From: Candidatus Actinomarina sp.
GTDB lineage: Bacteria; Actinomycetota; Acidimicrobiia; Actinomarinales; Actinomarinaceae
DNA: 64,000 nucleotides
Assembly: GCA_045563135.1 (NCBI GenBank)
Contig: JBJKUL010000001.1
Location: 100,731 to 164,730, forward strand
Direction of reading: 5' to 3'
Under the pieces are notes generated by a model, which made no database searches, had not been told where the DNA came from, and saw nothing but the letters and a program-made list of their open reading frames with translations. Below are positions 8,142 to 39,325 of the stretch, piece after piece. The position numbers and the translations under genes were made by a program. Each line of letters opens with the position of its first letter. Within the stretch, counting starts at the first letter, position 1.

Positions 8142-9951
8142 CTTCTTCTACAACTTCACCTTCAACTACGTCTCCATCTTCCTGATTATCTGAAGAGTTG
8201 TTTTCTGCATCTTGTTGGGCTTCAGCATATAACTTTTCAGCAAATGACTGGCTAGCTTTAGTCAGCTCATCTATTGCATTCTTTATATCTTCTAAAGACG
8301 CTTCTTCATTTTCTAAAACTTTAGAGAGTGAATCCTTTCCTTCAGTAATAGCAGTAGCTTCTTCATCGGTAGCTTTTTCTTTGTTCTCTTCTAGCATTTT
8401 TTCGGTTGAAGTAACCATCCCCTCTGCCAAGTTTCGAGTCTCAATAAGTTCTTTTTTCTGAGCATCCTCATTAGCATGAGTTTCTGCATCTTTAATCATT
8501 CTTTCTATCTCATCATCCTCAAGAGCACTTCCTCCTGTGATGGTGATATTCTGCTCTTTCCCAGTGCCTAGATCTTTTGCATTAACATTAACAATACCGT
8601 TAGCATCTATATCGAAGGTAACTTCTATTTGAGGAGTGCCTTGTTTTGCAGAAGGAATTTCTGTAAGTTTAAATTTACCCAGAGATTTATTCCCAGATGC
8701 CATTTCCCTCTCACCTTGCAAGACATGGATTTCTACTTCTGTTTGTCCATCTTCTGCAGTTGTGAAAGTTTCAGACCTTTTCGTTGGTATAGTTGTATTT
8801 CTTTCAATCATCTTTGCAACTATTCCACCTTTGGTTTCAACACCTAAAGTTAAAGGAGTTACATCAAGTAACAATACATCTTTTACATCTCCCTTTAATA
8901 CCCCAGCTTGAATAGCTGCACCTGAAGCAACTACCTCATCCGGGTTAACACCTTTATGAGGGTCTTTACCAGTCATACTTTTAACCAAAGCTTGAATAGA
9001 TGGAATTCGAGTAGAACCCCCAACTAAAATTATGTGTTCAATATCAGAATATGATAATCCAGCATCCTCAATTGCTTTATTTACTGGAGCTTTAGTTCTT
9101 TCAACTAAGTCAGAAGTTATTTTCTCAAATTCGCTTCTAGATAGTTTTTCTAGTAAATGTTGTGGGCCTGAGTCATTGGCAGTTATGAAAGGGAGATTAA
9201 TTTCTGTTTCACTTGTTGACGAAAGTTCAATTTTAGCTTTTTCTGCTCCCTCTTTAATTCTCTGCATAGCCATTTTGTCTGTAGAGATATCAATTCCTGT
9301 TGAGGATTTAAATTTCTCAACTAACCAATCCATGACCTTTTGGTCCCAGTCATCTCCTCCTAGTTTCGAATCACCTGCAGTAGATTTCACTTCGAATACA
9401 CCTTCTGATATTTCTAATACAGACACATCAAAGGTTCCTCCACCTAAGTCATAAACTAGTATTTTTTGGTCTTCGCTATTTTCTAATCCGTAAGCTAGTG
9501 AGGCAGCTGTTGGTTCGTTAATTATTCTTAAAACATTTAGGCCAGCAATTTTACCTGCTTCCTTAGTTGCTTGTCTTTCAGCATCATTAAAATATGCTGG
9601 TACAGTAATAACGGCTTCTGTGACATCTTCTCCTAAGTATGCCTCTGCATCTGTTTTCAATTTTTGAAGAATTCTTGCTGAGATTTCTTGAGGAGTATAC
9701 TCCTTACCTTCAAAAGTTTCTTTCCATGAAGTACCAATTTCTCGTTTTATAGATCTAATTGTGTTGTCAGGGTTGGTTATAGCTTGTCTTTTTGCAAGTT
9801 CACCTACTAAAACTTCGCTCCCTTTGAAAGCTACAATGGAAGGTGTTGTTCTATTCCCTTCTGCATTAGCAACTACTGCAGGCTCTCCACCTTCTAGTAC
9901 TGCAACCACGCTATTTGTAGTTCCAAGATCAATTCCAACTGCTTTTCCCAT
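8134..9951 (-). CDS. dnaK: Chaperone DnaK (Hsp70)
   Basis: 605 aa with [16 protein letters not shown] and the full Hsp70 ATPase and substrate-binding domains. Confidence 0.97.
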
Positions 9952-9983
9952 GTTTGTTTTCCTTTCTTAAAATTTATTAGTTA

Positions 9984-18904: not shown

Positions 18905-19825
18905 ATGATAAAAAAATTAACAAAATTTTTTGCAGTAGCAACAGTAATAAAAAATTTAATTGGAACTAAGTCCGATAGCACAGAGGGTTTAACTCAGATT
19001 CATCCATCAAAAATACCGGGTAGGACTGTCTTCATTAGAGAAAAAGAATATTTTATTCGAGAATCACTTGTTGAGAACACACTACCAATAGTGTTTCTTC
19101 ATAGCTGGGGCTCTGACTCTCTAGGCAGTTGGTTCAAAGTTCTTCCCTATTTTCATCATAAAAATTCTTTCATTGCAATTGATATGAAAAATCATGGTAA
19201 ATCAGATGCAAGTTGGAAACGATGGGATGTAGATGAGAATGCAGATATAGTAATAAGCATTTTAGAACAGCTAGGAGTAGAGAAGTGCAACCTAGTCGGA
19301 TGGTCGATGGGAAGTGCGGTGGCACTGAGCATATCAAGAAAAAAAGAAAAATTAATAAATAAAATGGTTTTAATTACACCCTTTAGTTGGCTAGGTGGGG
19401 CAGTCTATAAAGATAAGCCCCTATTTAAAGCTTTTGTAGCGGTAGTAAGGATTAGAGAAAGACTATTTCCAAACATGAACTCAAAATCAAAATACTCACA
19501 TCTTCGTAAAACAGGTGCATTAGAAAATGAATATACAGACTGGGCCTGGAATAATTTACATAAATCAAAAGATGATTTTATATATGAAGACGGAGGTAGG
19601 TATGTCGTTCCTTATGACGCAAGACCTTGGTTAAAAGAAATAAAGACTAAAACACTTGTAATTACAGGTGGAAAAGACAATTTAGTTCCAGAAGAGACAT
19701 CTCAGGATGTAATTAAGAATTTAGAAAATGTTAAGGAGCTAATTTTTGATAATGCTGCTCATTCTATTCCATGGACACATGATCAGGAATTAATCGATGA
19801 ACTAGAAGCATTTTTTAAAGAATGA
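18905..19825 (+). CDS. Alpha/beta-fold hydrolase (esterase/lipase-like)
   Basis: HSWG oxyanion-type motif, a GWSMG nucleophile elbow (GxSxG) and a C-terminal His. Confidence 0.7.
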   Translation: MIKKLTKFFAVATVIKNLIGTKSDSTEGLTQIHPSKIPGRTVFIREKEYFIRESLVENTLPIVFLHSWGSDSLGSWFKVLPYFHHKNSFIAIDMKNHGKSDASWKRWDVDENADIVISILEQLGVEKCNLVGWSMGSAVALSISRKKEKLINKMVLITPFSWLGGAVYKDKPLFKAFVAVVRIRERLFPNMNSKSKYSHLRKTGALENEYTDWAWNNLHKSKDDFIYEDGGRYVVPYDARPWLKEIKTKTLVITGGKDNLVPEETSQDVIKNLENVKELIFDNAAHSIPWTHDQELIDELEAFFKE

Positions 19826-25159: not shown

Positions 25160-25525
25160 ATGAAAGTAGCCTATGTCTTAAACTCACCAAATGCAGCAAA
25201 TTATAAAGTTGGGGAGATGATACTTCCGCAACTAGAAGCTGGTAACCATGGAGTAGATGTTGTTGGAATTTTCTTTTTTGATGACAACACAATGTTACTT
25301 CAAAAAGGAAACCCAAAAGGAGAAAGGCTAGCAAAAATAGCAGCTGAAAAGGGAATGCTTTTAATGATGTGTGACCAATGTGCAAACCAAAGAGGTTTAG
25401 CTACTGAAAATGCTGATGGAGGCTACACTCCAGAGGGAACTGTTGAGGGAGTAGCAGCAGGTTGTTTCCCAGACTTATACCAAGCATTATCAGGCAATAT
25501 GCCCGATCAAGTCATATCTTTATAA
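25160..25525 (+). CDS. DsrE/DsrF-like (YchN-fold) sulfur-relay family protein
   Basis: 121 aa. It has the MKVAYVLNSP...GVDVVGIFFF.D pattern and a CDQC motif typical of the DsrE family. Confidence 0.6.
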   Translation: MKVAYVLNSPNAANYKVGEMILPQLEAGNHGVDVVGIFFFDDNTMLLQKGNPKGERLAKIAAEKGMLLMMCDQCANQRGLATENADGGYTPEGTVEGVAAGCFPDLYQALSGNMPDQVISL

Positions 25526-27487
25526 CTAAACTAAACCACTTATAACAGCTGTAAGGATGAGGATTATTAAATAGCTTATTAGTCCTCCTCCTATGGCAGC
25601 ATATTTCATAGTTTTTGATATTGAGCTTGGACCAACTAGATGGTACGCAAGAACTCCGAAAAATGGCACCAAAAATACTAAGGCTAGCCACATATATCTT
25701 CTACCACCCGAAACCTGATTATTAGTGTTCAAATCATATAACGCTAATGCTGTCCATGCTGCATAAAGCACAAAAGGCATTAAATAGCCATATAGTTGAA
25801 ACAATAATTGCCAAATACTTGGGCTTGAAATAGGCACTCCACTCATTATTATCTCCTTTTTAGCTTCAAATAAGTTATTTAAATCCTCGTCTACAAGATC
25901 GTATGGAAGTTCCATAGTGTCAATGCTAGGAACGTAAAACAGGTTTATAGCTGGGCTAGGGGTTTTAATATTATCAAAAGTCATATTGAGTTGCTCTTTA
26001 GGCCACGGATATTCCTTATATCTATTCTTGTCTAGTTCTTCATTTTGAGCATCTGCAAAAAATCCAGCGAGCATCATTAATCCTGATACGTCACCTTGTA
26101 GGGGAAACCTGGAAAACAAATTGTCATTTTCTAATGATGAACAATTATGTAGTTGCTCAAGAAGAGGAGGTGTCGATGTTTGATAGATGTTATCTTCATA
26201 GCAATTCCCCGGACCCCACGGACCTGCCAATGCCAAATCAGTATATCCTGAATCAAGAACCAAGTTCTCTTTAACTTGGACGTGTTGGGAAAAATAGAGT
26301 TTTGCATCCAACATAGGACTTGCAACTATTCCATATTTATCATGATTTATAACAATATTTTTCTCAATAATATCTCCAACTCTTCCGGGAACAACAATTC
26401 CCATTCCACGTGCAACAAGTCCAAAACGATTTGTTGGTGCATCATAATTATTATTGTCTACAACTAAGTTGCTGATAATTGTTGTTTCTCTACCTGGTGG
26501 ATTTAATTCTGAATCAAGTGTATTTGGAACTATACCTGACATATTATCTCGCCAAATATTTCTATATAAATAAAGGTGTCCACCTGCATTAGTTCCTGAG
26601 TATCCAAGTGCATTTCCTTCAACAACGTTATCGTAAATTAATGAATTACACGGATAACATTGTCCAATGTATATACCACTATCAGGATGACCAGAGGCAT
26701 AAATGTTATCAAAAACTCCATCTGTAGAGTCGAATGCATATACTCCATAATCACCATTGTTATAAACTGTTAAGTAAGAGCCTTTAAATCCTTTTGAACC
26801 GTTCCAATAGACTCCATTAAGTGAAAAATTTCTAACGGATAAGTTTTCAACACTAACTCCATCTGTGTCATAAATCTGAATACCATTCTCTCTCATAAAT
26901 TCACCATCAACAATTACAGAGTTTCTATTAGTACCTCTAATTGTTAAATAATCAGTTGTTATAGTTACACTTTCGTTATATACCCCAGGATTTATTAAAA
27001 CTAGGTCACCTTCTAGTGCTGAGTCAACAGCTTCCTGAATTGTGTTAAATTGCTTATTATCTCCTACTTCAAGCACATTGCTGCTAAGTTCTACAACAAC
27101 CTTTTCTACAGGTGCACTGTACTCTACATCGCCAACAATGACGGTTCCAACCATCCCCTTATTATTTGTACCGTGATATGGGCAATAATATTCGTATACC
27201 CCTGGCTCCTCAAAAGTATATTCATATTGGTCACCTTTTGTAATAATTCCATATTCAAAGTAGTCAGATGAAATAGCCTGCCACGATCCATCACTAGCAA
27301 TTACATTATGGTTATTTGACCCACCTGATTCCCATATCACGGTTGAGCCAACTGGAACATTGATGACTTTGGGAGAAAATTCATCATCAACTATTCGAAT
27401 CACTAATGGTTCCTCAGAGGAAGCATCTCCAGCTCCACAAGCTAAAAGGAGAATGGAAAAAATGAATAAACTTAGAACTTTCTTCAC
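25526..27487 (-). CDS. Lipoprotein with a type-1 cupredoxin (plastocyanin-like) domain, a NosD-like right-handed parallel beta-helix and a C-terminal PLDc_N-like TM anchor
   Basis: Lipobox LLLACG. Blue-copper ligand set in NNHNV...YYCPYHGTNNKGMVGTVIV. Repetitive beta-helix region (NLSVRNFSLNGVYWNGS, YGVYAF, NVVEGNALGYSG). The C-terminal WLALVFLVPFFGVLAYHLVG plus TM helices is PLDc_N-like. Confidence 0.6.
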   Translation of the reverse strand: MKKVLSLFIFSILLLACGAGDASSEEPLVIRIVDDEFSPKVINVPVGSTVIWESGGSNNHNVIASDGSWQAISSDYFEYGIITKGDQYEYTFEEPGVYEYYCPYHGTNNKGMVGTVIVGDVEYSAPVEKVVVELSSNVLEVGDNKQFNTIQEAVDSALEGDLVLINPGVYNESVTITTDYLTIRGTNRNSVIVDGEFMRENGIQIYDTDGVSVENLSVRNFSLNGVYWNGSKGFKGSYLTVYNNGDYGVYAFDSTDGVFDNIYASGHPDSGIYIGQCYPCNSLIYDNVVEGNALGYSGTNAGGHLYLYRNIWRDNMSGIVPNTLDSELNPPGRETTIISNLVVDNNNYDAPTNRFGLVARGMGIVVPGRVGDIIEKNIVINHDKYGIVASPMLDAKLYFSQHVQVKENLVLDSGYTDLALAGPWGPGNCYEDNIYQTSTPPLLEQLHNCSSLENDNLFSRFPLQGDVSGLMMLAGFFADAQNEELDKNRYKEYPWPKEQLNMTFDNIKTPSPAINLFYVPSIDTMELPYDLVDEDLNNLFEAKKEIIMSGVPISSPSIWQLLFQLYGYLMPFVLYAAWTALALYDLNTNNQVSGGRRYMWLALVFLVPFFGVLAYHLVGPSSISKTMKYAAIGGGLISYLIILILTAVISGLV

Positions 27488-27516
27488 AGGTACATTTTAG
27501 CAACTATTATTGGCAC

Positions 27517-27780
27517 ATGGATAGTAAAGTATGGGCTTGTCCCAAGTGCAACACATCATCTGTGGTGATTGCAAAAAAAGACAAAGACAGAAGCAGAGAT
27601 TCAATTTCTCAACCACATACAAGTGAAACAGTTTCAATGACAAGTGGGGGTTTTACTAAGTTTTTCAATGTTCAAAATCAAAAGTTCTTAGTTATTACAT
27701 GTAGCAAATGTTCATATTCAGAATTTTATCGTTCTGAAGTTAAGGCTTGGGAGTCTATAATCGACTTTTTTGGTAACTAA
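27517..27780 (+). CDS. Zn-ribbon nucleic-acid-binding-like small protein (DUF2082-like)
   Basis: CPKC ... CSKCSYSEFY, two Cys pairs flanking a low-complexity linker. Confidence 0.5.
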   Translation: MDSKVWACPKCNTSSVVIAKKDKDRSRDSISQPHTSETVSMTSGGFTKFFNVQNQKFLVITCSKCSYSEFYRSEVKAWESIIDFFGN

Positions 27781-31795: not shown

Positions 31796-32908
31796 TTAAA
31801 GTTGGCTTGCAGCAACTGAAGCAATAATTATTGTGAGGGTAATTATTCCGAGAGCTGTAATGAGAACTTCGTTCTTTGTGATTTTTATTTTAGGACCTGC
31901 GCTCATCAAAGCTGAGAAAAGTAAAATTGCGGCTGAAATTATTAATGCAAATAGTGGAGCATAGTCATGAAAATTGATAAAAACTTGAGATATAAGTACA
32001 GCAATTATACCCCCAACTAAAATTGCACCTAAAGGAATAACTGCTGAACCAGTGATTCTATTTCGAATAATAACCGCTTCTTCTTCTTCAAAAAGCTCTA
32101 AACCTTTGGGTACGCCCAGAAGTATTGAGATTACTGAAATTAGCGCCTGAAAAAGAGTTGACATTAAAACGATTCTCCAAAAAGATCCAAAAACTGGAAG
32201 CAAAAATAATGTTGGATCTTCTGGAAGAATTGGCTCAATTGTTTGACCAATTGATGATGTTATAAAGAATCCGGTGATTGATCCAAACATTAACCCTAAC
32301 CCAGTGCCTTGAAAGATTGATTCCCTATCACTTGTTTTTATGCCATGACCAATAAAGTTGGCTTCAAGTAGTTTCTTAACATTAACTGTATTTATAACTG
32401 CAAAAAAAGTTGTTAGAAGTGTTAAAGCAACAATGTAAGTAGTTTTCTTATATTCTGTTATAAGATTGAAAGTTTCAGATTCAAGAATCAAACCATCATA
32501 AAGATATGTACTTATAGCAATTGCTTGAATAAATCCAGTGATAATCCCAAATAAAGATCCATACTGTAATGCGCGTGCAACTTTTGAAAATAAATCTGCA
32601 GGTGGTTCGATAAACTCCTCAACAACTTCGGTTGCTACAGGAGCTTCCTCAACAACTTCGGTTGCTACAGGAGCTTCCTCAACAACTTCGGTTGCTACAG
32701 GAGCTTCCTCAACAACTTCGGTTGCTACAGGAGCTTCCTCAACAACTTCGGTTGCTACAGGAGCTGCGGGGCTTCCAGAGGACCAACTTGAAAGAATTGA
32801 ATTTATGTCAACGCCATTAGCTTCTGCTCTCGCCTGAGCTGATCGCGAAACTAGCATCTGAGGAACACCAGTTGTGTTACTAATTTCTTCTATAAGTTTT
32901 TCATCCAT
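31796..32908 (-). CDS. Polytopic membrane protein with an N-terminal soluble region containing five tandem PVATEVVEEA repeats, hypothetical
   Basis: 370 aa with a repeat region followed by about 8 TM helices. It sits 4 nt upstream of aceA within the cta/aceA minus-strand gene string. Confidence 0.5.
   Translation of the reverse strand: MDEKLIEEISNTTGVPQMLVSRSAQARAEANGVDINSILSSWSSGSPAAPVATEVVEEAPVATEVVEEAPVATEVVEEAPVATEVVEEAPVATEVVEEFIEPPADLFSKVARALQYGSLFGIITGFIQAIAISTYLYDGLILESETFNLITEYKKTTYIVALTLLTTFFAVINTVNVKKLLEANFIGHGIKTSDRESIFQGTGLGLMFGSITGFFITSSIGQTIEPILPEDPTLFLLPVFGSFWRIVLMSTLFQALISVISILLGVPKGLELFEEEEAVIIRNRITGSAVIPLGAILVGGIIAVLISQVFINFHDYAPLFALIISAAILLFSALMSAGPKIKITKNEVLITALGIITLTIIIASVAASQL
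32611..32770 (-). repeat. Perfect 30-nt tandem repeat (about 5 copies) encoding PVATEVVEEA
   Basis: The plus strand reads gagcttcctcaacaacttcggttgctacag repeated. Confidence 0.9.
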
Positions 32909-32925
32909 AATATTCTTATTAAATT

Positions 32926-33708
32926 TTAGTCGTTAGTTGAAGTTCTAACTACATCATCGAAGGTTTTTTCAGTTTTATACCAACTCATCCAAGTTATTAA
33001 AATAAATATCCACAGAATTAAACCACCACCCAATTTCAGGACAAGTCCAGCCATAGTTTGATCATTAATAACCGATACATTAAAAATATTTTCAACCTCA
33101 AGATATGCGGAATACAATGGCTCCGTTCCAAATGCTAGGAAGCTTGCCGGAATCGTAGGTAACAAAGACTGAAGAAAAAGATAGGCTATCTTACCGGGAG
33201 CACTTAGTTGTTTGATATCTTTGGTTAGTCCTATTACGGGAATCCACATATTCAAAGAAACTAAAAGCATTACTCCATGGATAAGGAAATGAAAGAGAGT
33301 ATTAGTAACCATTAAATTAATTACATTAGTCCAGTGCATGCCAACCATAACAAAATTAAAAAGAAAAAATGCAACCACGGGTTTAGTTGTTACTTGCAAA
33401 AGTGAAATTAAAGGTTTCACAGAAATTAATTTTTTTTGTGCACTATTCAAGCCATTTAGCAGCAGGGGGGGAGCAACTAGTGCTAGTACTAAGTGTTCTG
33501 CTGAGTGTACGGAGAATAAATATTTTTCACCAATATCATGAATTGGCCAATCTGTGAATAGCCAGAGGAAGAATAATCCCGAATACCATGATCTTCTTTT
33601 ATTTTTTTTAATATCAGAATTGTCAGTGGAGTATTCAAAGAAAACTATAAGTGAAACTATCAGTGCCCAGACGTCATAGTGTGGGTGCCAAACTAAACTA
33701 CTCATCAA
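32926..33708 (-). CDS. ctaG: Cytochrome c oxidase caa3-type assembly factor CtaG-like membrane protein
   Basis: 260-aa polytopic protein immediately downstream of ctaF. Its start overlaps the ctaF stop. Conserved His residues are present. Confidence 0.5.
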   Translation of the reverse strand: MMSSLVWHPHYDVWALIVSLIVFFEYSTDNSDIKKNKRRSWYSGLFFLWLFTDWPIHDIGEKYLFSVHSAEHLVLALVAPPLLLNGLNSAQKKLISVKPLISLLQVTTKPVVAFFLFNFVMVGMHWTNVINLMVTNTLFHFLIHGVMLLVSLNMWIPVIGLTKDIKQLSAPGKIAYLFLQSLLPTIPASFLAFGTEPLYSAYLEVENIFNVSVINDQTMAGLVLKLGGGLILWIFILITWMSWYKTEKTFDDVVRTSTND

Positions 33709-34004
33709 ATAAAGTTTGCAGCAGCTCTTTCGAACATAACAATTGCAAATAAGATGAGTGCTAAAATCATTCCACCAGTAAAAAATTTGTTTATCAGAGA
33801 GTTTTCAAACCTCAAGTGCATAAACCAACCAACAACAATTACAAACTTACCAACAGCTAAAATTATCAAGAGAGGGTCAGTAAACACTCCAACAAAGTCT
33901 TCGGTGTAGTATAAAGCAACTTCAATTGCAGTAAGAACACCTAGGACTAATGCTATCTGAACATATTGAGCAGGCTTTGGGTGCGGTTTGTGATCAACTG
34001 ACAT
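33705..34004 (-). CDS. ctaF: Cytochrome c oxidase subunit IV (prokaryotic CoxD/CtaF type). The start is trimmed to the ATG that overlaps the ctaE stop
   Basis: The track ORF (to 34133) runs 130 nt into ctaE. The ATG at 34004..34002 shares its A with the ctaE TGA stop. The 100-aa product has 3 TM helices and an FMHL motif. Confidence 0.6.
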   Translation of the reverse strand: MSVDHKPHPKPAQYVQIALVLGVLTAIEVALYYTEDFVGVFTDPLLIILAVGKFVIVVGWFMHLRFENSLINKFFTGGMILALILFAIVMFERAAANFI

Positions 34005-34588
34005 CAGATTAGGTAAACCACTGTGAAAAGGACAATCCAAACAATATCTACGAAGTGCCAATATAAGGCGACAAATTCCAAGTTCATTCCACCATCTAAT
34101 GAGAGTCCTTTTTGTCTTTGGCCAATACCCCAAAGAGCTAAAAGCAGAACAACGCCAATAAATACGTGCAACCCATGAAATCCAGTCAAAACATAAAATG
34201 TAGAACTAAAAATATTTGAAGATAGCTCAAATCCCTTATGATAAAATTCAGTAAATTCATAAATTTGACCTGCAAGAAAAACTGCACCCAACATGGCAGT
34301 AGATAGTAACCAAACCCTAGTTTTTTCTTGATCATTGTTTTCTAATGCATTGTGAGCAAGAACCATAGTTAATGAGCTCATTAATAAGACAAATGAACTT
34401 ACAGAAGTGAATGGTATGTCGTAAACATCTGTAAGTTTAATTCCAGGAAAATCTCTTCCCTTGAAGATCATAAATGTAGTTATTAAGGTCCCAAAGAAAA
34501 GTATTTCAGTAGATAAAAATATCCAGAATCCTAGTTTTCTAGTTTCAACGCCCGTAGGTTCATGAGGATATGAGTGAGAGTCACTCAT
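34004..34588 (-). CDS. ctaE: Cytochrome c oxidase subunit III
   Basis: 194 aa with 5 TM helices and the typical COX3 HVFIGVVLL / WHFVD motifs. Confidence 0.85.
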   Translation of the reverse strand: MSDSHSYPHEPTGVETRKLGFWIFLSTEILFFGTLITTFMIFKGRDFPGIKLTDVYDIPFTSVSSFVLLMSSLTMVLAHNALENNDQEKTRVWLLSTAMLGAVFLAGQIYEFTEFYHKGFELSSNIFSSTFYVLTGFHGLHVFIGVVLLLALWGIGQRQKGLSLDGGMNLEFVALYWHFVDIVWIVLFTVVYLI

Positions 34589-36542
34589 TTTCTAGATCTT
34601 CCATAAATTCTTCCTCTAAAGGCTCCGTTCCCCATCCAAAGCTACCGATAAGGATTAGCAAAGTACCAAGGATTGCTAAAGGAAGCATTTTATAAATTAC
34701 AGCGTAGCCCAGGAACGGAAGTCCAGATGCCAAGATTATTGGAAAATATGATGGATTTGGAAGGACAATCTCTTCTGACGGGTTTAACCCTTCTTCCTCG
34801 AGTTCTGCTAATAATGCATCTGCTCCTTCTTTCCTAACAGGTCTGCCATCCTCATCCTCATCATATTTCATATGCCAAAAATCATCAAGAGACTTTACTT
34901 CCGGTGCCTTCGAAAAGTTCCATACTGGTGTTGGTGAAGGAATACTCCATTCAATTGTTCGCGCATCCCATGGATCAAATCCAGCTTCTGGGCCTTTTCT
35001 CTTTGAATATATCCAGTTAGCCATAAAGACCAATATGGAAAGAGCAATGATGAATGCTCCTATAGAAACGATTAAGTTCCAAAATCCTAAATTAGTCTCT
35101 TCTGCGTACACCCAAGTTCTTCGAACCTGGCCTTGTAGTCCTAACCAATGCATCGGTCCAAAAGTGAGGTTAAAACCAATTATCATGAGCCAAAAATGTA
35201 TTTTTCCTAAAGCTTCGTTATACATTTTTCCCCATACTTTCGGGAACCAGTAATAGAGACCTGAGAAAATGCCAAACATAGCACCTCCAAAAAGAACATA
35301 GTGAAAATGTGCAACAACATAATATGTATCGGTTTGCTGGGTATCTGCTGGGACAATCGAATGTGTTACTCCACTGAGTCCACCAATAACAAACATACCA
35401 ATAAATCCTAGAGAAAATAGCATCGGTGTATTAAGTTTTAACTTACCTCCCCAAATTGTTCCAAGCCAATTAAATATCTTTACACCAGTTGGCACAGCTA
35501 TAACCATTGTTGATAACCCAAAACCTGCTTGGGCTACAGGACTTATTGCTGATGCAAACATGTGATGTGCCCACACTCCAAAACCAATAAATGCTATACC
35601 GAACCCTGCAAACACTATTGCTGGATAGCCGAAAAGAGGCTTTCTAGAGAAAGTAGGTAAGACCTCAGAGACAATTCCAAAGGCAGGAAGTATTAATATG
35701 TATACTTCAGGGTGACCAAATAACCAAAATAGATGTTGCCATAATATTGGGTCACCTCCACCTTCGGTCAAAAAGAAAGTTGTTCCAAATTGTCTATCAA
35801 ATGTTACATAAAAGAGTGCTATAGCAATTATTGGTAATGAGAATGCAAGTAAAAATGAAACTGCAAATGTCATCCAGGTGAATACGGGCATTCTCATTAG
35901 TCTCATACCTTTAGTTCTCATGTTCAGAATTGTTGTTATGAAATTAAATGCTGAGACTAAAGAAGCAATACCAAGAATTTGTAGACCTATAGCCCAATAA
36001 TCCATAGCTGTACCAGGTGAGTATTTAAAACCAGCATTGGGTTGATACCCAAACCAGCCACCATTGGGAGCAGAACCTAATCTACTAACTTCTTCTGCCA
36101 AATAACCACCTTGAGGTGCTCCTGCTGTACCAAATAAGAAAGTTGAATATAGAAAAACTCCTCCAAAGATAAAAATCCAAAAAGAAAGAGCATTTAGCCT
36201 TGGAAAGGCAACATCTCTTGCACCTATTTGCAGAGGTAACAAATAATTAAAAAAAGCAGCACTGATGGGCATAATTGCCAGAAAGATCATCGTGGTACCA
36301 TGCATAGTAAACATAGCGTTGTACTCAGCAGCACTTAAAAAGTTATTGTCTGGAGAAGCTAATTGGATTCTCAACAAGAGGGCTTCAATGCCTCCGATAA
36401 GTAAAAAGAAGAATGCAGCATATCCATACATTATTCCTATTTTTTTGTGGTCAACGGTTGTTATCCAGCTCCATATTCCTGTTTCTGAAGAGGGTCTTTT
36501 AAATATGTTAGATTGTTTTTTTGGTTCAATAATTTTTGTCAT
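34581..36542 (-). CDS. ctaD: Cytochrome c oxidase subunit I (with an extra 2-TM C-terminal extension of about 90 aa)
   Basis: Heme-copper oxidase motifs are present (GHPEVYILILP, WAHHMF, HFHYV). It runs 653 aa versus a typical length of about 550. Confidence 0.95.
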   Translation of the reverse strand: MTKIIEPKKQSNIFKRPSSETGIWSWITTVDHKKIGIMYGYAAFFFLLIGGIEALLLRIQLASPDNNFLSAAEYNAMFTMHGTTMIFLAIMPISAAFFNYLLPLQIGARDVAFPRLNALSFWIFIFGGVFLYSTFLFGTAGAPQGGYLAEEVSRLGSAPNGGWFGYQPNAGFKYSPGTAMDYWAIGLQILGIASLVSAFNFITTILNMRTKGMRLMRMPVFTWMTFAVSFLLAFSLPIIAIALFYVTFDRQFGTTFFLTEGGGDPILWQHLFWLFGHPEVYILILPAFGIVSEVLPTFSRKPLFGYPAIVFAGFGIAFIGFGVWAHHMFASAISPVAQAGFGLSTMVIAVPTGVKIFNWLGTIWGGKLKLNTPMLFSLGFIGMFVIGGLSGVTHSIVPADTQQTDTYYVVAHFHYVLFGGAMFGIFSGLYYWFPKVWGKMYNEALGKIHFWLMIIGFNLTFGPMHWLGLQGQVRRTWVYAEETNLGFWNLIVSIGAFIIALSILVFMANWIYSKRKGPEAGFDPWDARTIEWSIPSPTPVWNFSKAPEVKSLDDFWHMKYDEDEDGRPVRKEGADALLAELEEEGLNPSEEIVLPNPSYFPIILASGLPFLGYAVIYKMLPLAILGTLLILIGSFGWGTEPLEEEFMEDLENE

Positions 36543-37555
36543 TTAAGTGTTCCTAAATAAGCAATTAATGCGTTTATTTCTTTCTCAGTTAATTCTAGAT
36601 TAGGCATGAAAGTACCAGGTTTTATTTCAGCAGGATTTGCAAGCCACTTTGTTAGATTTTCAGGATTATTTTTCAAGGCTGCACCAGCAAAGACACTTCT
36701 ATTTGCAAAATGTGTAAGATTAGGAGCGATTCTATCACCTTGTACATCCCACACCCCATCAATAACATGGCACTGCGTACAGCCTGCATTTAGATAAACA
36801 AGTTGACCTTCAGCAGCTAAGGAAGATTCAGGCAATTCTTTTTCTGCATAAGATTGTTCATTTGCTACCCAGGCAGCAAAATCACTTTCAGTCATAGAAA
36901 TAACCCTTCCTCTCATTTTTGAATGACTTAATCCACAATACTCACCGCATTGAGCCCAGAATTCTTCGGGAGAATCAGCTTGAAGATTAAGATACGTTGT
37001 TTGTCCTGGAACTAGGTATCTTTTTCCGTTTAGTTTAGGGACCCAATAGTTATGTAAAACGTCATTTGACCACATTTCGAGTCTGACGGGTTGGTCTTCA
37101 GGTATTACTAAAACATTCGCAGTAGTTATTCCAAAATCTGGGTATTTGTATTCAAACCACCACTGGTGACCAATTACCTCAATTTTAAGTGCATCCTCTG
37201 GCTCACGAGCAAGATCAAATATTGTTTTTACAGTAGGTACAGCAATTGCTGCCAAAATTAATACAGGAATAATCGTCCAAAGAATTTCCAAGAAGTTATT
37301 TCCATGAATTTGCTTTGGGTCTGGGCTAGATTCCCTCTCCTTAAAATAAAACACTGAAAATAGAAGTGCACCTTGAACAATTACAAAGACACCTACAGCA
37401 ATCCAAAATGTAAGCCAAAAAAGTTCATCAATACTTCTTGCATAAGGGCCTGCGGGACTTAACGAGTCAAGGGGAGCATCTTCTATACAAGAAGCTATGA
37501 AAATAAACCCTAACAAAAAAATTTTTTTACTTTTAAACAATTTCATCTCAAACAA
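36539..37555 (-). CDS. ctaC: Cytochrome c oxidase subunit II with a fused C-terminal cytochrome c domain (caa3-type)
   Basis: CuA site CGEYCGLSHSKM. C-terminal heme-c motif CTQCH. N-terminal lipoprotein-like signal. Confidence 0.9.
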   Translation of the reverse strand: MFEMKLFKSKKIFLLGFIFIASCIEDAPLDSLSPAGPYARSIDELFWLTFWIAVGVFVIVQGALLFSVFYFKERESSPDPKQIHGNNFLEILWTIIPVLILAAIAVPTVKTIFDLAREPEDALKIEVIGHQWWFEYKYPDFGITTANVLVIPEDQPVRLEMWSNDVLHNYWVPKLNGKRYLVPGQTTYLNLQADSPEEFWAQCGEYCGLSHSKMRGRVISMTESDFAAWVANEQSYAEKELPESSLAAEGQLVYLNAGCTQCHVIDGVWDVQGDRIAPNLTHFANRSVFAGAALKNNPENLTKWLANPAEIKPGTFMPNLELTEKEINALIAYLGTLK

Positions 37556-37604: not shown

Positions 37605-38498
37605 GTGTTAATGTTATCAAAAAAAATTTCTTTGGTAAAAAAATTTGTAAAACTCTCAAAACTGCGGGTTGTGGAACTCTTGTTAGTCACAACAATACCA
37701 AGCATGATAGTCTCTCTTTACTCAATGCCCCCACTGACGCTTGTATTATCTACGCTAGTTGGTGGAACGTTGTTAGCTGTTAGTGCAAATGTCATGAACC
37801 AGGTTTTTGAAATTGAAAGAGACAAGTTAATGCAGAGAACTGCAGATAGACCACTCGTGACAGGAGAGCTCACTAAATCTACTGGTATAGGATTTTCAAT
37901 AATTACCGGGATTATTGGTTTTGCAACTTTATATTTACTAACAACTCCAACAGCAGCATATATAGGGCTTATAGCAAATCAATTCTACATTTTCATCTAT
38001 ACATTAATTCTTAAGCCAAGAACAAATCAAAACATTGTAATTGGTGGAGCTGCAGGAGCAGCTCCGGTATTAATTGGTTGGACTGCGACAGGTAGCACTC
38101 TTGATATCGGGGCCTGGCTATTGTTTTTATTAGTATTTATGTGGACTCCGGCACATTTTTGGGCTCTCTCAATTGAAAACAAGGAAGATTATAAACATGC
38201 AGATTTTCCAATGCTACCAACTCAGGAATCATACGAAAGATCTACAATATATATAGCAATTTATTCTTGTGCAACGGTGTTGATTTCATTAGCTGTTGCT
38301 CCAGTGCTTCAATTAGGTATTGTTTATTTACTAATTTCCATTTTTTTAGGATCAAATCTAATGCTTAAATCTTTTAACCTGTATAAAAAAAATATAAAGC
38401 CGATCAAATACTTTGTCTTTTCAAACACTTATTTAGCTGTTATATTTTTAGGAATAGTTGCAGACATAATGTGGACATTGAGGGGAATAGCTGTATGA
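37605..38498 (+). CDS. ctaB: Protoheme IX farnesyltransferase (heme O synthase)
   Basis: UbiA-family, 8-9 TM. It is adjacent to and divergent from ctaC. Confidence 0.8.
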   Translation: MLMLSKKISLVKKFVKLSKLRVVELLLVTTIPSMIVSLYSMPPLTLVLSTLVGGTLLAVSANVMNQVFEIERDKLMQRTADRPLVTGELTKSTGIGFSIITGIIGFATLYLLTTPTAAYIGLIANQFYIFIYTLILKPRTNQNIVIGGAAGAAPVLIGWTATGSTLDIGAWLLFLLVFMWTPAHFWALSIENKEDYKHADFPMLPTQESYERSTIYIAIYSCATVLISLAVAPVLQLGIVYLLISIFLGSNLMLKSFNLYKKNIKPIKYFVFSNTYLAVIFLGIVADIMWTLRGIAV

Positions 38499-39325
38499 AT
38501 GAATTTCTTTTTTCGATAACCTATCCGCCTATACCAATTACACAAATTGGACCTGTTGCCTTTTCTTTACATGGAGTATTTGCTGCAGTCGGTTTTTATT
38601 TTGGATCAACTTACGCGATTAAGTTATGTGTGAAAGATGGAAATGATGACCAGCTATTTTCAGATGCTTTTACCTGGGCAATTTTTGGTGCAATAATTGG
38701 TGCGAGATTTTTTACAATACCTGCTCACATAGGAGATCCAGGCTATGGATTAGATGATGTATTTTCAGTAGCAGGTAGTTATTCAATTATGGGTGGTATG
38801 TCAGGAGGTATTATCGCAGCATATTTGAGGATTGTAACAGTAGGTAAAGCAAACTTTCAAACTTATAGTGATTATGCTGCCCCAGGATTAATTATGGGTA
38901 TTGCTATTGGAAGAATAGGGGACCTAGCAATTGTTGAACATTTAGGAAGAGCAACTGATTTTATGTTTGGTTACGAAATCAAGCCTGGGTATGATGTAGC
39001 TCCGCAACACAATGCACTTGAATGCTTTGCTCCCGAGATTACTTGCGGAACCTATCACCATGTTGCAATGTACGACCTTATTCTTGCAACTCTTTTCTTT
39101 TTTGTATTTAGATACTTACAAAAGAATCTAAATTTTGGGAGTGGTTCTTGGATTGGTCTATGGGCAATCTGGTATGGTGTTCAAAGAATGATACTAGACA
39201 CACTCAGGTTTGGCATGGGTGATGCAACTATCGGCATATTTACTTGGAATCAGATTGGTGGTGCAACCCTTGCAAGCATTGGACTGCTGGTCTTTTTACG
39301 ATTTAAGAATATTAAAACAAGCTAA
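38471..39325 (+). CDS. lgt: Prolipoprotein diacylglyceryl transferase-like
   Basis: Polytopic with a GIAIGRIGDLAIVEHLGR motif resembling the Lgt GRxGNFxNxE signature. The exact start is uncertain because it overlaps the ctaB 3' end. Confidence 0.55.
   Translation: MDIEGNSCMNEFLFSITYPPIPITQIGPVAFSLHGVFAAVGFYFGSTYAIKLCVKDGNDDQLFSDAFTWAIFGAIIGARFFTIPAHIGDPGYGLDDVFSVAGSYSIMGGMSGGIIAAYLRIVTVGKANFQTYSDYAAPGLIMGIAIGRIGDLAIVEHLGRATDFMFGYEIKPGYDVAPQHNALECFAPEITCGTYHHVAMYDLILATLFFFVFRYLQKNLNFGSGSWIGLWAIWYGVQRMILDTLRFGMGDATIGIFTWNQIGGATLASIGLLVFLRFKNIKTS

Follow-up and report, generated by a model that had tools for sequence, protein, structure and literature searches.

Why does a marine bacterium carry a blue-copper domain, a long parallel beta-helix and a membrane anchor on one polypeptide? 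The question is raised by a 653-amino-acid (aa) lipoprotein encoded in a 64,000-nucleotide (nt) stretch of Candidatus Actinomarina sp. DNA (contig JBJKUL010000001.1; hereafter the window), whose G+C content is ~35%. A first-pass annotation, made from the letters alone, had described the protein as an unusual, uncharacterised fusion with a NosD-like scaffold, proposed a cell-surface copper or redox role for it and drawn attention to its two flanking genes. We observed that it belongs to a widespread but uncharacterised family of surface copper proteins with several domains, in which each part is of a known kind and the combination is common in nature. The proposed surface role remained the best-supported reading, given the invariant copper ligands, a copper oxidase gene downstream in three phyla and one fusion to an oxidase. 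The gene and its parts are as follows; the coordinates of the cupredoxin ligands, of the C-x-P-C motif and of the signal peptide were verified by translation.

25526..27487, minus strand: whole gene, 653-aa lipoprotein (cupredoxin, beta-helix and three-helix membrane anchor), from the list of open reading frames (ORFs)
27437..27487, minus strand: signal peptide and lipobox, residues 1-17 (...LLLAC), Cys17 being the predicted lipidated residue (hydropathy, sequence)
27134..27406, minus strand: type-1 (blue) copper cupredoxin, residues 28-118 (Pfam PF00127, plastocyanin alignment, Foldseek, conservation)
27308..27310, minus strand: codon of ligand His60
27182..27184, minus strand: codon of ligand Cys102
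27173..27175, minus strand: codon of ligand His105
27152..27154, minus strand: codon of ligand Met112
26132..27067, minus strand: right-handed parallel beta-helix, residues 141-452
26648..26659, minus strand: Cys277-Tyr-Pro-Cys280, the family-defining C-x-P-C motif in a helix turn (conservation)
26141..26203, minus strand: Cys429 (26201..26203) and Cys449 (26141..26143) at the C-terminal end of the helix, a probable structural disulfide (joint conservation)
25820..26131, minus strand: helix-to-membrane linker, residues 453-556, partly helical (AlphaFold2 secondary structure)
25529..25819, minus strand: C-terminal membrane module, residues 557-653, a PLDc_N-type hairpin and a third transmembrane helix (Pfam, AlphaFold2)

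The gene begins with a GTG codon at 27487 and closes with a stop codon at 25526..25528. No obvious ribosome-binding site was seen ahead of the GTG, in 27488..27516. Hundreds of metagenomic contigs encode the same protein or a nearly identical one, with Candidatus Actinomarina sp. as the NCBI assignment; such a number of copies indicates a genuine gene rather than a chance ORF. In related loci of high G+C content, long upstream extensions of the ORF were discarded as antisense artefacts.

We then asked how far the family extends. A scan of one genome per species returned 581 stretches encoding relatives, helix-only proteins included. The best 80, which match nearly the whole query, were taken as loci and orthologues, and conservation was computed on 81 proteins, the window protein and these 80. 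They are distributed over Actinomarina (13 loci), other Actinomycetota (43), Leptospiraceae, including cultured pathogenic and saprophytic Leptospira (17), Chloroflexota (4), Gemmatimonadota (2) and a SAR11 single cell (1). Thus, the supposed rarity of the architecture did not hold, while its description as uncharacterised did: databases label such proteins only generically ('right-handed parallel beta-helix repeat-containing protein', 'plastocyanin' or the automatic 'periplasmic copper-binding protein NosD'), and we found no publication on the family in the literature on Leptospira copper oxidases, Actinomarina copper proteins and TIGR03805.

From 1.84 billion representative proteins, 389 clusters were retrieved at E <1e-30, with several architectures among the best matches. 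The full arrangement was present in about a dozen clusters; others comprised the cupredoxin and helix without anchor, the helix and anchor without cupredoxin and, most commonly, the helix alone. In a further type, the helix is joined to two membrane helices and a PD40 propeller (P0228, P0239, P0255, P0261 and P0265). Apart from PD40 propellers and a single fusion to a multicopper oxidase, the only extra domain in the longer relatives was a second helix. Fusion of cupredoxin and helix is recurrent, with ~30 separate clusters at 50% identity. In the SAR11 single cell AG-900-K14 (L074, 9932..11953), two ORFs lie in succession with 39 nt between them, the first (553 aa) for cupredoxin and helix and the second (106 aa) for PLDc_N; this apparent split could be real or a frameshift of the single-cell assembly.

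The cupredoxin domain was readily recognised. Pfam PF00127 (Copper-bind) covers residues 36-118 with 43.3 bits (cutoff 21.2, E 4.9e-11), and alignment with plastocyanin matched the pattern H60...C102-P-Y-H105-x6-M112 with the plastocyanin ligands one by one, the Cys-to-Met loop being 2 residues longer in our protein. The best solved match to the domain was the Nitrosopumilus cupredoxin 5fc9 (E 1.3e-10). By Foldseek, the domain reached target-normalised TM-scores of 0.72-0.77 against cupredoxins. It thus has the fold and the His, Cys, His and Met ligands of type-1 cupredoxins such as plastocyanin, amicyanin, halocyanin and 5fc9. The NCBIfam equivalog models of the first three scored it below their cutoffs (plastocyanin, 40.2 versus 87.85; halocyanin, 44.2 versus 93.8; amicyanin, 24.2 versus 110.2). 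His60, Cys102, His105 and Met112 were invariant in 80/80 informative orthologues from five phyla. The ligand set read from the letters therefore stood without a single loss, and its invariance argues for a functional copper site under selection.

The helix proved to be the most conserved region (0.68, against 0.51 for both the cupredoxin and the anchor). Pfam Beta_helix covers its residues 191-319 with 43.1 bits (cutoff 25.9, E 4.4e-11). Tyr247, Asp269, Tyr273, Asn300 and Asp325 were invariant among the 81 proteins, as were Cys277 and Cys280, each in 81/81; Pro279 and Glu327 were each kept in 80/81. Conserved residues of the helix lie 20-22 positions apart, that is, one rung, so that they would line one face of the helix, which resembles an active-site groove. 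In the wider family alignment, including helix-only proteins without cupredoxin, Cys277 and Cys280 were each kept in 101 of 104 sequences. The Cys pair is thus the signature feature by which the helix family is known. A haem c site at the pair was considered and rejected: the residue after Cys280 is Asn and is variable elsewhere, and CxxCH occurs in one listed representative only. At the C-terminal end of the helix, Cys429 and Cys449 were both present in 79/81 proteins and lost together in the other two (L015 and L066). Since they were lost only jointly, they fit a disulfide and accordingly an oxidising, extracytoplasmic location.

Both ends of the protein point to the membrane. The N-terminus, MKKVLSLFIFSILLLAC, is a signal peptide closing in the lipobox residue Cys17, at which lipidation is predicted; a Cys was aligned at this position in 47/81 orthologues. 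A gene for prolipoprotein diacylglyceryl transferase (Lgt) is present within the window (38471..39325). At the other end, Pfam PLDc_N (PF13396) covers residues 579-619 with 25.3 bits (cutoff 23.3), and Trp578, Asp585, Pro608 and Tyr615 of the anchor are kept in at least 95% of orthologues. As the PLD catalytic domain does not follow PLDc_N, the protein is not a phospholipase D.

An AlphaFold2 model built on the 104-sequence alignment (mean pLDDT 91.1, pTM 0.87) placed in order a beta-sandwich (28-118), a regular beta-helix (~141-452), the partly helical linker and three helices (558-588, 595-618 and 625-650), the first two of which form the PLDc_N hairpin. The linker was modelled with pLDDT 71-98 and is poorly conserved (0.39), except for Pro494, Pro496 and Gln499. 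Hence all four parts named in the first-pass annotation, lipobox, cupredoxin, beta-helix and PLDc_N anchor, were recovered, and the beta-sandwich and long beta-helix appeared in the model; the third transmembrane helix after the hairpin is a detail beyond that account. An Arg-Arg pair sits in the loop after the first C-terminal helix, and this loop is predicted to face the cytoplasm. Together with the exported N-terminus, it suggests a topology with both globular domains outside and the C-terminus inside. According to this model, the protein is exported and anchored by both termini on the external side of the cytoplasmic membrane, through the N-terminal lipid and three C-terminal transmembrane helices.

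The comparison with NosD held for the fold and failed for the sequence. NosD is a helix held at the membrane, and a copper enzyme depends on it (PMC8457098). The likeness comprises a right-handed beta-helix, a location on the external side of the cytoplasmic membrane and genes adjoining that of a copper enzyme. However, the NosD model TIGR04247 reached 27.8 bits against a cutoff of 300, through model positions 1-67 only and the first 70 residues of the helix. Pfam NosD was not reported for the protein at E up to 1, and NosD was not found when the family profile was compared with solved structures. NosD docks on an ABC transporter; our protein does not, having membrane helices of its own, and it carries a fused cupredoxin. 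Its Cys-x-Pro-Cys, with the invariant Cys pair, may be a further difference. No ABC transporter was among the conserved neighbours of the 80 loci. Neither nosZ, nosF nor nosY was found near the gene, the ~12 kb on each side carrying housekeeping or cytochrome oxidase genes. True NosD membership was thus ruled out by sequence models and gene context, and we infer by analogy that the protein is NosD-like in outline, as a membrane-held helix that a copper enzyme would need, and not a NosD family member. The best curated helix model was TIGR03805 ('beta_helix_1', exported and itself uncharacterised), covering residues 150-392 with E 1.4e-24; at 86.8 bits, below the cutoff of 141.5, the protein is related to that family and not a member.

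Gene context was examined in the 80 loci. In Leptospira, the family gene is followed in order by a free 104-aa PLDc_N gene, a two-domain multicopper oxidase gene and SCO1/SenC. This order was held in 15/17 loci, and the remaining two are cut off by contig ends. The free PLDc_N protein resembles the anchor of our protein.

L021, 9980..14121: four-gene copper cluster in the order common to 15 Leptospiraceae loci; the oxidase carries a Tat-like signal

Upstream of the Leptospira cluster, in divergent orientation, is a gene for a MASE11 histidine kinase. The same two-domain oxidase was found directly downstream of the family gene in both Gemmatimonadota loci (2/2) and in one Acidimicrobiia locus, and it is the only neighbour association that crosses phyla. 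Its closest solved relative is Arthrobacter 3gdc, followed by copper nitrite reductases. The oxidase sequence has three His-rich motifs besides a His-Cys-His motif, a pattern which we take to denote the trinuclear copper centre of laccase-type enzymes and not a nitrite reductase. Beyond adjacency, a 1266-aa protein from a forest-soil metagenome (P0251; L082, 8001..11801) unites on one chain a cupredoxin, a three-domain multicopper oxidase, several membrane helices and the helix of this family.

A simple model would thus involve a surface copper-linked redox or maturation module serving exported copper oxidases, with the helix groove as working site and the cupredoxin as one-electron relay. We favour it tentatively, judging from sequence and gene order. 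In the groove, the Cys pair would bind Cu(I) or cycle between dithiol and disulfide, and the tethered cupredoxin would pass single electrons to or from this site. The module would then serve exported copper oxidases, either by helping in their loading or activation or by exchanging electrons with them. Its putative partner in Leptospira, Gemmatimonadota and the one Acidimicrobiia genome would be the two-domain multicopper oxidase whose gene follows directly, to which the copper chaperone SCO1 would be added in Leptospira; the Actinomarina gene stands alone, without a copper-gene neighbour. A comparable arrangement exists in cupredoxin-extended copper oxidases (9cck and 6hbe), in which the cupredoxin is likewise tethered to a larger copper enzyme. 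That tethered cupredoxin relays electrons. It is fused to the copper oxidase itself, in contrast to the cupredoxin of our family, which is fused to a beta-helix.

Several observations weigh against this model. A copper-related neighbour was found in 0/14 Actinomarina loci (the window counted), 1/43 loci of other Actinomycetota, 0/4 of Chloroflexota and 0/1 of SAR11. The oxidase link therefore concerns a minority of lineages, and confidence in the mechanism is limited, as in most lineages, among them Actinomarina, the family gene is without a copper gene as neighbour. Many members lack the cupredoxin, and in three contigs examined no cupredoxin gene was found beside such members; contigs bearing helix-only and helix-anchor relatives were short or told little. 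Moreover, the best fold matches were sugar-acting enzymes and not NosD, and the family sequence profile matched among solved structures only pectinesterases, in the N-terminal helix cap only.

These last matches lead to the main rival, in which the helix is a sugar-acting enzyme of the epimerase, lyase or hydrolase type working on envelope or extracellular polysaccharide. The cupredoxin would then be accessory, providing electrons for an oxidative step or playing a structural part. We consider this explanation unlikely. In its favour, Tyr, Asp, Asn and Glu on successive rungs resemble the catalytic grooves of such enzymes; the pectinesterases match the N-terminal cap, and the fold ranking points the same way. 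That ranking is biased, however, as most solved beta-helices are sugar enzymes. The mannuronan C5-epimerases AlgE4, AlgE6 and AlgG also align conserved polar residues on successive rungs; their identity to our protein is 14-16%, and they have neither copper domain nor membrane anchor. The catalytic motif of AlgG/AlgE epimerases is DPHD, with a proton-abstracting His (PMC4444821). DPHD, also sought as DPH[DE], was present in 0/81 proteins, and no His is invariant in residues 141-452. Alginate-epimerase chemistry was accordingly ruled out by the missing motif. In addition, no glycan-synthesis or glycan-export gene was a conserved neighbour in the 80 loci, and a sugar enzyme leaves unexplained both the invariant copper ligands and the linkage and fusion to copper oxidases.

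A second rival is a plain membrane-tethered blue-copper carrier, halocyanin-like, with the helix as a rigid spacer; it would feed the caa3 oxidase encoded ~5.4 kb away in the window.

32926..37555, minus strand: caa3-type cytochrome oxidase cluster (CtaG, subunit IV, subunit III, 653-aa subunit I, subunit II fused to cytochrome c)
up to 39325, plus strand: haem O synthase (UbiA family) and then Lgt, after the caa3 cluster

The intact, invariant type-1 site, the membrane anchoring at both ends and the presence of the caa3 cluster in the same window are consistent with such a carrier and, to our knowledge, the lineages carrying the gene all appear aerobic. A carrier with a spacer is improbable, however, since the helix is the most conserved part, with invariant residues that include the Cys pair. 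Helix-only and helix-anchor relatives are also common, and the halocyanin and plastocyanin models stayed below their cutoffs. Finally, cytochrome oxidase genes lie near the family gene in Actinomarina and in no other lineage, and the caa3 cluster was rejected as a partner because its proximity is confined to this genus. Within the cluster, the ORFs of subunits IV and III (33705..34133 and 34004..34588) overlap by 130 nt, so that one start codon was probably called too early. A 370-aa ORF (31796..32908, minus strand) between isocitrate lyase and CtaG is without Pfam match and is kept in 11 other Actinomarina loci.

The genes that flank ours in the window, to which the first-pass annotation drew attention, are the following.

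25160..25525, plus strand: SaoD/DsrE-family gene (NF040913, 191.6 bits versus cutoff 152)
27517..27780, plus strand: Zn_ribbon_13/DUF2082 gene (Pfam)

Their arrangement differs from that first described. The DsrE-like gene, said to be divergent, is convergent with ours, and the two stop codons abut with 0 intergenic bases (25525/25526), leaving no room for a terminator hairpin. The Zn-ribbon gene, placed immediately downstream, is in fact upstream and divergent, with 29 bp between the start codons (27488..27516). By blastp and tblastn, the DsrE-like gene was absent from 80/80 related loci, including those of 13 other Actinomarina species, and the Zn-ribbon gene adjoins the family gene solely within Actinomarina. 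In the other Actinomarina, the slot between the family gene and pfkB is empty in seven loci, where pfkB directly follows, and in five it holds a 187-aa membrane gene of the cation-efflux family.

L001, 11965..12528 (likewise in L005, L006, L012 and L014): cation-efflux-family gene in the slot

Both inserts, SaoD/DsrE-like here and cation-efflux in the five species, belong to metal-linked families. Members of the SaoD-related branch, to which the DsrE-like protein belongs, often adjoin metal-import genes (preprint 10.1101/2022.07.06.499078). A functional unit of our protein with both neighbours, joining copper handling to sulfur transfer, could draw on this affiliation, on the metal-related gene in the same slot and on the tight packing on either side, but is highly improbable and essentially refuted, as the adjacency is not conserved, the Zn-ribbon being confined to the genus; a convergent DsrE-like gene excludes co-transcription, and its product, without signal peptide, would be cytoplasmic while the domains of our protein are extracellular. 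The family gene adjoins a copper oxidase gene in Leptospira and two other groups, which again indicates that these flanking genes are not partners.

Other recurrent neighbours were also considered. In the high-GC Actinomycetota, Chloroflexota and SAR11, candidate partners were rejected as housekeeping only (sigma factor, aminotransferase, AAA ATPase, wax-ester synthase, Ku/LigD, a two-component system and NlpC/P60). In 7 Actinomycetota loci, an alpha/beta-hydrolase gene (Abhydrolase_1) with the same orientation directly precedes the family gene (L049, at 9079..9969, L058, L059, L061, L073, L080 and L042) and ~1.5 kb upstream in 12 more, with the wax-ester synthase in between in one checked locus (L025). 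The Actinomarina homologue (18905..19825) is ~5.7 kb off, on the strand opposite to our gene. The adjacency looks like inherited gene order.

Returning to the surface copper module, one bolder version would have a thioredoxin-style Cys-x-Pro-Cys on the helix wired via the blue-copper domain to a dedicated two-domain multicopper oxidase and hence to oxygen, as a surface redox system not recognised before. We regard this version as quite unlikely; if true, it would mean a copper-based extracellular oxidation of thiols (or of Cu(I)) in Leptospira and, in reduced form, in abundant marine bacteria. For Actinomarina, the setting is an ocean in which copper is scarce. The genomes of Actinomarina, marine Acidimicrobiia and SAR11 are very small, and the gene is kept in every Actinomarina genome examined, so that it likely matters to the cell. 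The family is also present in cultured Leptospira, pathogenic species included, where genetics is possible and where the four-gene copper cluster is found. Its function, once worked out, would give multicopper oxidases a new accessory protein or redox partner and would correct at least hundreds of database entries, whose automatic 'NosD' or 'plastocyanin' label is misleading.

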